Part shown: in pieces, positions 60,457 through 60,539 of the stretch
Position numbering within the stretch: position 1 is the stretch's first letter
Layout: every line of letters begins with the position of its first letter
Position numbers and translations under genes: made by a program
Sequence record: OR896830.1
Source of the DNA: Escherichia phage LinBro
DNA length: 64,000 bases
Strand: one strand, 5' to 3'
The notes under the pieces: generated by a model
The model's input: the letters and a program-made list of their open reading frames with translations, nothing else
Told to the model about the DNA's origin: nothing
Databases searched by the model: none

Positions 60457-60539
60457 ATGGGACGATGTTAAGACTCTAAGGCATGAGCAACGGCCTCCAA
60501 AACCGTTTCAAAGGGGTTCAACTCCTCCGTCCCATGCCA
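60457..60539 (+). tRNA. tRNA-like, possibly tRNA-Trp (anticodon CCA), non-canonical D region
   Basis: Acceptor ATGGGAC/GTCCCAT, loop CTCCAAA, T-loop TTCAACT, CCA encoded; D region ~7 nt too long. Confidence 0.35.

Follow-up and report, generated by a model that had tools for sequence, protein, structure and literature searches.

A putative non-canonical tRNA-Trp(CCA) gene with a nine-nucleotide connector in the tRNA array of Felix O1-type phages

A cloverleaf in the tRNA array of phage LinBro

The transfer RNA (tRNA) array of Escherichia phage LinBro (record OR896830.1) was analysed in a stretch of 64,000 nucleotides (nt), here called the window, which belongs to a Felixounavirus: its array region matches genomes of that genus (JK55, pinkbiff and HY02 among them) at 96-99% identity. 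Within this array, at positions 60457-60539 of the plus strand, lies an 83-nt cloverleaf with a tryptophan anticodon (hereafter the element), which is the subject of this report. tRNA-Ser(TGA) follows it on that strand after 13 nt, the stretch from tRNA-Arg to tRNA-Ser holds no terminator-like site, and the element encodes its own CCA, as do nearly all tRNAs of the array. Little coding potential was seen, the open reading frames (ORFs) that overlap it being just 22-36 amino acids (aa) long. Felix O1 and its relatives are among the phages most used for typing and therapy. Their tRNA sets have repeatedly been analysed, and described either as serving 19 amino acids (PMC12482277) or as comprising 17-23 tRNAs (PMC8300805, PMC3185647); we found no mention of the element in the papers examined on Felix O1, wV8, Felixounavirus or Sf14.

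Read 5' to 3', the element runs AUGGGACG AUGUUAAGA CUC UAAGGCAU GAG C AACGG CCUCCAAAA CCGUU UCAAA GGGG UUCAACU CCUC CGUCCCAU G CCA, and its parts are set out in Table 1. A sequence-only reading of the window had proposed a tRNA-like gene here, its anticodon loop that of Trp and its D region oversized. Direct inspection of the sequence found the acceptor, the T arm, the encoded CCA and the loop CTCCAAA where that reading had placed them, and the comparative data described below bear out the gene itself. Its estimate of about 26 nt between acceptor and anticodon stem was accurate (26 nt from a 7-base-pair (bp) acceptor to position 27, against 19 in the standard form), and so was the excess of about 7 nt, since alignment to a covariance model leaves a 7-nt gap in canonical array tRNAs directly after the acceptor stem and MAFFT opens a gap at the same place when the element is aligned with Escherichia coli trpT and the tRNA-Trp of phage phiEa21-4. 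The extra bases do not, however, belong to the D loop: they form the connector between the acceptor and D stems. Similarly, although the sequence CTCCAAA is present, it is not a canonical 7-nt loop by pairing, because the pair that would close it (31.39) is C.A or C.C in 15/15 homologs and never Watson-Crick, which leaves a loop of 9 nt.

Table 1. Parts of the element, in window coordinates
Feature	Position	Strand	Remarks
Acceptor stem, 5' strand AUGGGACG, 8 nt	60457..60464	+	A1 pairs with U72; eighth pair G8-C invariant; pairs 1-72, 2-71 and 3-70 covary
Connector AUGUUAAGA, 9 nt (2 in canonical tRNAs)	60465..60473	+	Holds the 7-nt insertion; invariant in 15/15 distinct homologs
D hairpin: 3-bp stem CUC/GAG, conserved U.U, loop UAAGGCAU with G18-G19-like GG	60474..60487	+	2/3 pairs with double compensatory changes
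Anticodon arm: stem AACGG/CCGUU (standard 26-30/40-44), 9-nt loop CCUCCAAAA	60489..60507	+	4/5 pairs with double compensatory changes
Anticodon loop positions: U33, anticodon CCA, A37	60496; 60497-60499; 60500	+	C31.A39 unpaired; UCCAA invariant
Variable loop UCAAA, 5 nt	60508..60512	+	Invariant
T arm: 4-bp stem GGGG/CCUC, G53-C61 adjoining loop UUCAACU	60513..60527	+	Outer pair covaries GC -> UA
Acceptor 3' strand CGUCCCAU, discriminator G73 (60536), encoded CCA (60537-60539)	60528..60539	+	GCCA invariant

Several hallmarks of a tRNA are present and are either invariant or vary conservatively: a UUCRANY T loop with G53-C61, the GG of the D loop, U33, a purine at 37 and a 3' CCA. Across the homologs the anticodon loop reads C-Y-U-CCA-A-M-M (9 nt) and the T loop UUCRANU, and the T loop of the element fits the T54-Psi55-C56-R57-A58 pattern. 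The acceptor pairs as AUGGGAC(G)/(C)GUCCCAU. Its G8-C pair forms in both the minimum-free-energy and the consensus folds and both bases are invariant, so that an 8/4 division between acceptor and T stem, and a 7/5 division with an A49.C65 mismatch, both fit the data; in either case the acceptor/T-arm stack has 12 layers. The anticodon helix runs, in standard numbering, from 26-44 through 30-40. Where the tRNA norm is a 2-nt connector followed by a 4-bp D stem, the element has a 9-nt connector and a D stem of three Watson-Crick pairs plus U.U.

Two further pairings of the connector were considered. A candidate pseudoknot between its A-U-G and the C-A-U of the D loop, which might help to house the extra bases, is compatible with the data (97.8% paired), yet shows one-sided wobble changes only. 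In addition, UAAGAC of the connector (60469-60474) is exactly complementary to GUCUUA (60542-60547) in the 13-nt 3' trailer, and pairing in the precursor is possible. This trailer is 100% conserved in Mooglevirus, and a conserved connector-trailer pairing was rejected because the complementarity is not kept in SUSP2, Arno162 or the divergent metagenomic copy L205.

Covariation, distribution and the gap in the tRNA set

The cloverleaf is obtained both by folding the single sequence and by RNAalifold, and a comparison of 15 distinct homologs (alignment A2) supports it by covariation. From these sequences RNAalifold recovers the cloverleaf unguided, with 9 of the 20 pairs changed on both sides. 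Counting pairs on the consensus fold gave standard pairs in 98.7% of cells, together with 27 double-change cells and 17 further pair types. In the controls none of 500 shuffles reached the observed pairing, and sliding the partners by 1-3 columns left at most one double-change pair. All four helices covary; for example, the acceptor shows AU/GU/GC at 1-72 (AU in 10 of the sequences, GU in three and GC in two), UA/CG at 2-71 and GC/GU at 3-70, and the D stem changes from UA to AU and from CG to UA or UG. By comparison, the connector GAUGUUAAGA, the loop UCCAA, the variable loop UCAAA, the pair G5-C68, G73 and the CCA are invariant. As UCCAA, G73 and CCA stay fixed while every stem changes by compensation, selection appears to act on the features needed for decoding and charging. 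We consider it very likely that the element is a gene for some functional RNA.

From the same alignment a covariance model (R1) was built, which scores the window at 112 bits and the copy in Pectobacterium phage Arno162 at 88 bits, and overall 88-113 bits in Felixounavirus, Mooglevirus, Suspvirus and Arno162. By the same model, ordinary array tRNAs reach about 35 bits, with the 7-nt gap already mentioned, and the minus strand of the element reaches just 11 bits. With a 106-nt query around the element, matches were found in 235 phage records, belonging to Escherichia, Salmonella, Shigella and Citrobacter phages of the genera Felixounavirus, Mooglevirus and Suspvirus and to four Pectobacterium phages. 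An earlier 14-mer scan of viral contigs had returned mostly chance matches (the T-arm motif was present in 17/126), and composite patterns were used instead. These located the element in 22 IMG/VR contigs, mostly complete genomes of 84-94 kb in the Ounavirinae range, and it also occurs in further metagenome contigs, including L205. The signature of the 5' insertion and that of the 3' half match the same 22 viral contigs. We also looked in IMG/VR for an ancestral form that would combine this 3' half with a D arm of normal size, and found none, the 3'-half scan returning the identical 22 contigs. At the stringency of the pattern scan, the element was not found in 185,579 bacterial and archaeal species genomes.

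The distribution of the element coincides with a gap in the tRNA sets of these phages. Full scans covered representative genomes of each genus, and canonical tRNA-Trp was checked genome-wide in JK55 and Arno162. The 26 called tRNAs of the window serve 19 amino acids and leave tryptophan alone uncovered. Similarly, the complete genome of JK55, 99% identical here, encodes 25 tRNAs, which together serve 19 amino acids, with no tRNA-Trp anywhere, and the complete genome of Arno162, which carries the element, has 24 tRNAs for 19 amino acids and again none for Trp. Apart from the element, the phage tRNA set offers no candidate for tryptophan. Kolesnikvirus phages phiEa21-4, ST-3 and M7, of the same subfamily, show the reverse arrangement: a canonical tRNA-Trp(CCA) lies between tRNA-Gly(TCC) and tRNA-Thr(TGT), the element is missing, and the best R1 match in their arrays is this tRNA-Trp, at just 31-35 bits. 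In the window, tRNA-Gly and tRNA-Thr are only 7 nt apart, and the slot for Trp is therefore empty. In every genome examined, the element and a canonical phage tRNA-Trp are mutually exclusive.

The element and the Kolesnikvirus tRNA-Trp have in common the block GGCYUCCAAAMCC and the mismatch at 31.39 (C.A or C.C), and this combination of a shared block with an unusual mismatch points to descent from a common phage tRNA-Trp. The Kolesnikvirus genes themselves, canonical in shape (24578-24653 of L140, from phiEa21-4; 4001-4076 of L234), form just three Watson-Crick pairs in their anticodon stems, with mismatches at 27.43 (U.C/U.U) and 31.39 (C.A/C.C). The weak anticodon stem is therefore a trait of phage tRNA-Trp across the subfamily and not a peculiarity of the element.

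A candidate tRNA-Trp(CCA) and its alternatives

Tryptophan identity in bacteria is set by G73 and C34-C35-A36, with minor contributions from A1-U72 and G5-C68 (PMC9976931). The full set is present in the element, and the major determinants, the anticodon and G73, are invariant. Together with the covariation and the distribution described above, this leads us to regard the element as probably a genuine phage gene for a non-canonical tRNA-Trp(CCA) that is used in translation. It would be co-transcribed with the neighbouring tRNAs of the plus-strand array, and host RNase P and 3' trimming would release an 83-nt RNA ending in the encoded CCA; this processing should succeed, since neither the 12-layer acceptor/T stack nor the T loop departs from the norm. 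The host tryptophanyl-tRNA synthetase (TrpRS) would then charge it through C34-C35-A36, G73, A1-U72 and G5-C68, and the charged RNA would read UGG. Such a gene would replace the ordinary phage tRNA-Trp that Kolesnikvirus keeps between tRNA-Gly and tRNA-Thr, and would extend the Felix O1-type tRNA set to all 20 amino acids. E. coli has a single tRNA-Trp gene, and for this reason a phage copy could matter when host tRNA-Trp is limiting or targeted.

Were the element a working tRNA-Trp, no amino acid would lack a tRNA encoded by these phages, a point relevant to the idea that phage tRNA sets stand in for host tRNAs that are destroyed or depleted. Furthermore, the tRNA core would then tolerate a 7-nt insertion at the hinge, a region known to govern the decoding fidelity of tRNA-Trp, and a class of phage tRNAs would have been systematically overlooked by standard tRNA finders.

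As to why selection keeps the inserted sequence unchanged, our preferred guess is that the remodelled hinge alters recognition by a protein, such as a host tRNA-targeting nuclease or a modification enzyme, while charging and decoding are kept. A broader proposal sees an adaptive redesign of the tRNA-Trp hinge in three features taken together: the invariant 7-nt insertion, the weak D stem and the lack of pairing at 31-39. The RNA would still be charged by host TrpRS but would act differently from the host tRNA-Trp, which is single-copy, and would either escape a host nuclease or modifier that disables tRNA-Trp during infection or read UGA besides UGG. We offer this proposal tentatively and consider it rather improbable. 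If it held, the element would be the first case of a 9-nt acceptor-to-D connector in a functional cytoplasmic elongator tRNA.

Compared with canonical tRNA-Trp (E. coli trpT and the genes of phiEa21-4 and M7), the element shares the loop CUCCAAA, G73, A1-U72, G5-C68, a 5-nt variable loop, the T loop and the encoded CCA. It differs in the 7 extra nt between acceptor and D stems, in the 3-bp D stem, in positions 26-44, which form a covarying Watson-Crick or wobble pair and so shift the register of the anticodon helix, and in the 8/4 split of acceptor and T stems (or the A49.C65 mismatch). Its location also differs from that of the Kolesnikvirus gene, as it sits after tRNA-Arg(TCT) and not between tRNA-Gly and tRNA-Thr.

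Next in closeness after canonical tRNA-Trp come the 8/4 tRNAs (allo-tRNA, tRNA-Ser and tRNA-His), with which the element shares an occurrence in phage tRNA clusters, a record of being missed by standard finders and, on the 8/4 reading of its acceptor branch, the 12 layers of an 8-bp acceptor and a 4-bp T stem. Most 8/4 tRNAs have long variable arms. They are known from bacteria and phages (Mukai et al. 2017, PMC5389517) and have been reported for Ser and His, and in Cys- and Sec-like forms, but not for Trp (PMC5389517); in the literature on them we found no report of a 9-nt connector. A second set of parallels is provided by altered forms of tRNA-Trp(CCA), namely the Hirsh G24A and A9C variants, those with Blastocrithidia-like 4-bp stems and the bottom-unpinned ones (PMC13092985), in which the CCA anticodon is likewise kept and the hinge or anticodon stem changed. 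However, these are point changes within a standard cloverleaf, whereas the element has a 7-nt insertion that rebuilds the connector and the D stem.

Three other assignments were considered and rejected. The element resembles tRNA-Sec (RF01852) in its 8-bp acceptor and, if C31.A39 is counted, a six-layer anticodon stem, but it scores 23 bits against the 47 required, has 12 layers and not 13 (8/5 or 9/4), carries the anticodon CCA and not UCA, and has a 5-nt variable loop with no long arm and no 6-bp D stem. Like the bacterial Y RNA YrlA, it is a tRNA-like RNA encoded near a Ro60-like gene. However, YrlA is circularly permuted, lacks an anticodon and CCA and ends in a Ro-binding stem, whereas the element has a true tRNA topology and ends in an acceptor stem with CCA; moreover, Arno162 carries it without a Ro60-like gene. 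Finally, it is not the tRNA-like domain of a transfer-messenger RNA (tmRNA), since its anticodon arm covaries and its 3-70 pair is G-C and not the G3.U70 alanine identity pair.

Several observations weigh against a translational tRNA-Trp and must be set beside the evidence in its favour. ARAGORN called 26 tRNAs in the window, at 58665-63571, and the element is not among them; no match to the Rfam tRNA model RF00005 (detection threshold 29 bits) is listed for it, and its sole Rfam match is the one to tRNA-Sec, below the gathering score. Similarly, among the 60 matches listed of the 235 phage records, the feature annotated under the match is nothing or a 'hypothetical protein', and never a tRNA. 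That software should find no tRNA had been named beforehand as one of the outcomes that would refute the sequence-only reading. Nevertheless, with covariation in all four helices the comparative evidence still supports a gene, and we attribute the failure of ARAGORN and RF00005 to the 7-nt insertion and not to the absence of one. The energy of the single-sequence fold is unexceptional (z = -1.39). With G in place of U at position 8, A at position 48 and just three Watson-Crick pairs in the D stem, a normal L-shaped core is not assured. The flanking spacers are conserved about as well as the element (78-95% versus 86-99%); at this evolutionary distance conservation alone therefore proves nothing, and it is the pattern of substitutions and the distribution, rather than any identity value, that carry the case. 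In Bas63, a related phage, the phage tRNAs proved mostly non-essential. Furthermore, a connector of 9 nt is not known to us from any cytoplasmic elongator tRNA.

The alternative that survives best is a tRNA-shaped non-coding RNA that does not decode and that would instead act on a host tRNA-targeting defence enzyme or on TrpRS as a decoy or sponge, bind the Ro60-like protein as its ligand, or fill some other regulatory role. It has a real, if minority, claim. The aberrant core and the rejection by tRNA finders would suit such an RNA, and the invariant 9-nt connector resembles a sequence-specific protein-binding site. The array also holds other tRNA-like elements that are not tRNAs, namely a tmRNA-like tag frame (60084-60116) and a permuted module (~59480-59605); the gene for a Ro60-like DUF2828/DUF7788 protein lies directly upstream of the array, at 57084-58499; and the study of Bas63 suggested that some annotated tRNAs may be Y RNAs. 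However, a decoy needs no invariant anticodon, U33, A37, G73 and CCA in addition to A1-U72, nor does it account for an element that is present where the canonical phage tRNA-Trp is missing and absent where it is present. Both ends of the element lie in its acceptor stem, unlike those of Y RNA tRNA-like domains, and Arno162 has no Ro60-like gene anywhere in its genome, on which ground an obligatory partnership with the Ro60-like protein was rejected.

A second alternative keeps the tRNA-Trp(CCA) and gives it a wider task: with its remodelled hinge and unpaired 31-39 it would read UGA as well as UGG and so permit opal readthrough during infection. Changes at the tRNA-Trp hinge (A9C, Hirsh G24A), or loss of an anticodon-stem pair, do allow a CCA anticodon to read UGA, and bottom-unpinned tRNA-Trp genes with a 9-nt loop occur in bacteria, where they are unstudied (PMC13092985). 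The element is altered in the same hinge, and in the Kolesnikvirus tRNA-Trp no more than three anticodon-stem pairs are Watson-Crick. Against this, stop-codon usage and post-stop extensions in the window and JK55 look ordinary and give no hint that UGA is recoded: TGA is the stop codon of 24-27% of long ORFs, with no visible depletion, in-frame extensions past TGA are no longer than those past TAA (medians of 5 and 7 codons), and no pair of long ORFs split by a single TGA stands out. We consider this reading of UGA improbable.

Lastly, a decaying tRNA-Trp pseudogene, broken by the 7-nt insertion and passively carried, would explain the failure of tRNA detectors, the mismatches at 31.39 and 49.65 (or the 4-bp T stem) and the good conservation of the adjoining spacers as well, but it is very improbable, because a neutral relic would gather uncompensated changes and deletions and what is seen is compensatory substitution in all four helices, an inserted sequence that is invariant across genera, and insertion and 3'-half signatures in the same 22 viral contigs.

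Other RNA-like elements and genes of the array

Over its entire length, the spacer that separates the element from tRNA-Arg (60315-60456) shows 87-95% conservation across genera. At 60358-60398 it contains the motif GGAGGUGGUCUGUAUCUC followed by a hairpin, an arrangement also found upstream of tRNA-Gly/tRNA-Trp in phiEa21-4 (~24409-24450 of L140; 92% over 24 nt). A promoter-like site at 60425-60453 (9/12 matches) was rejected, being no better than chance and too close to the element to account for the 5' end. On the other side of the element, tRNA-Ser(TGA) (60553-60643) is followed by CCU in place of the encoded CCA found in nearly all the other tRNAs of the array.

A circularly permuted tRNA-like module lies at ~59480-59605. 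It consists of a T arm (GAAGG-UUCGAUU-CCUUC), an acceptor-like hairpin (ACUCGGC-AGAU-GUCGAGU) and a D-arm-like hairpin (GGUGU-AAUGGUA-GCACU), in that order, set on a long stem AGACCGUU.../...AACGGUCU and without CCA, and its architecture is that of bacterial Y RNAs (YrlA). The ORF at 57084-58499, just upstream of the array, encodes the Ro60-like protein (471 aa, DUF2828 + DUF7788). As a candidate for the Y RNA proposed in the study of Bas63, the permuted module is preferable to the Trp-like element.

The tmRNA-like tag frame (60084-60116, in the region 60006-60237) reads GCA AAC GAC AAU GUU UUU CUG GCA GUA GCU UGA UAG, that is, ANDNVFLAVA followed by two stop codons. Upstream of it, at 60006-60034, is the strongest promoter-like site of the array (TTGACA-17-TATAGT). 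The region is 80% identical over 134 nt to one in phiEa21-4 (24045-24289 of L140), in which the frame encodes ANDAQFLAVA, again with two stop codons. Its matches to the Rfam tmRNA and permuted-tmRNA models are weak, ARAGORN called no tmRNA, and no adjacent tRNA-like domain was found in the window.

A further RNA-like element, of 167 nt, directly follows tRNA-Arg(TCT) in phiEa21-4 (23878-24044 of L140). It combines an 8-bp acceptor (GGGUGAUU/AAUCACUC), a 4-bp T stem with a UUCGAAU loop, G73 and CCA with a tmRNA-like 5' end; it has no recognisable anticodon arm, no ARAGORN call and no homolog in the window. Finally, two protein genes lie inside the tRNA array of the window, DUF7338 (61654-62211, 185 aa) and DUF7217 (62600-63397, 265 aa), both belonging to families of unknown function.
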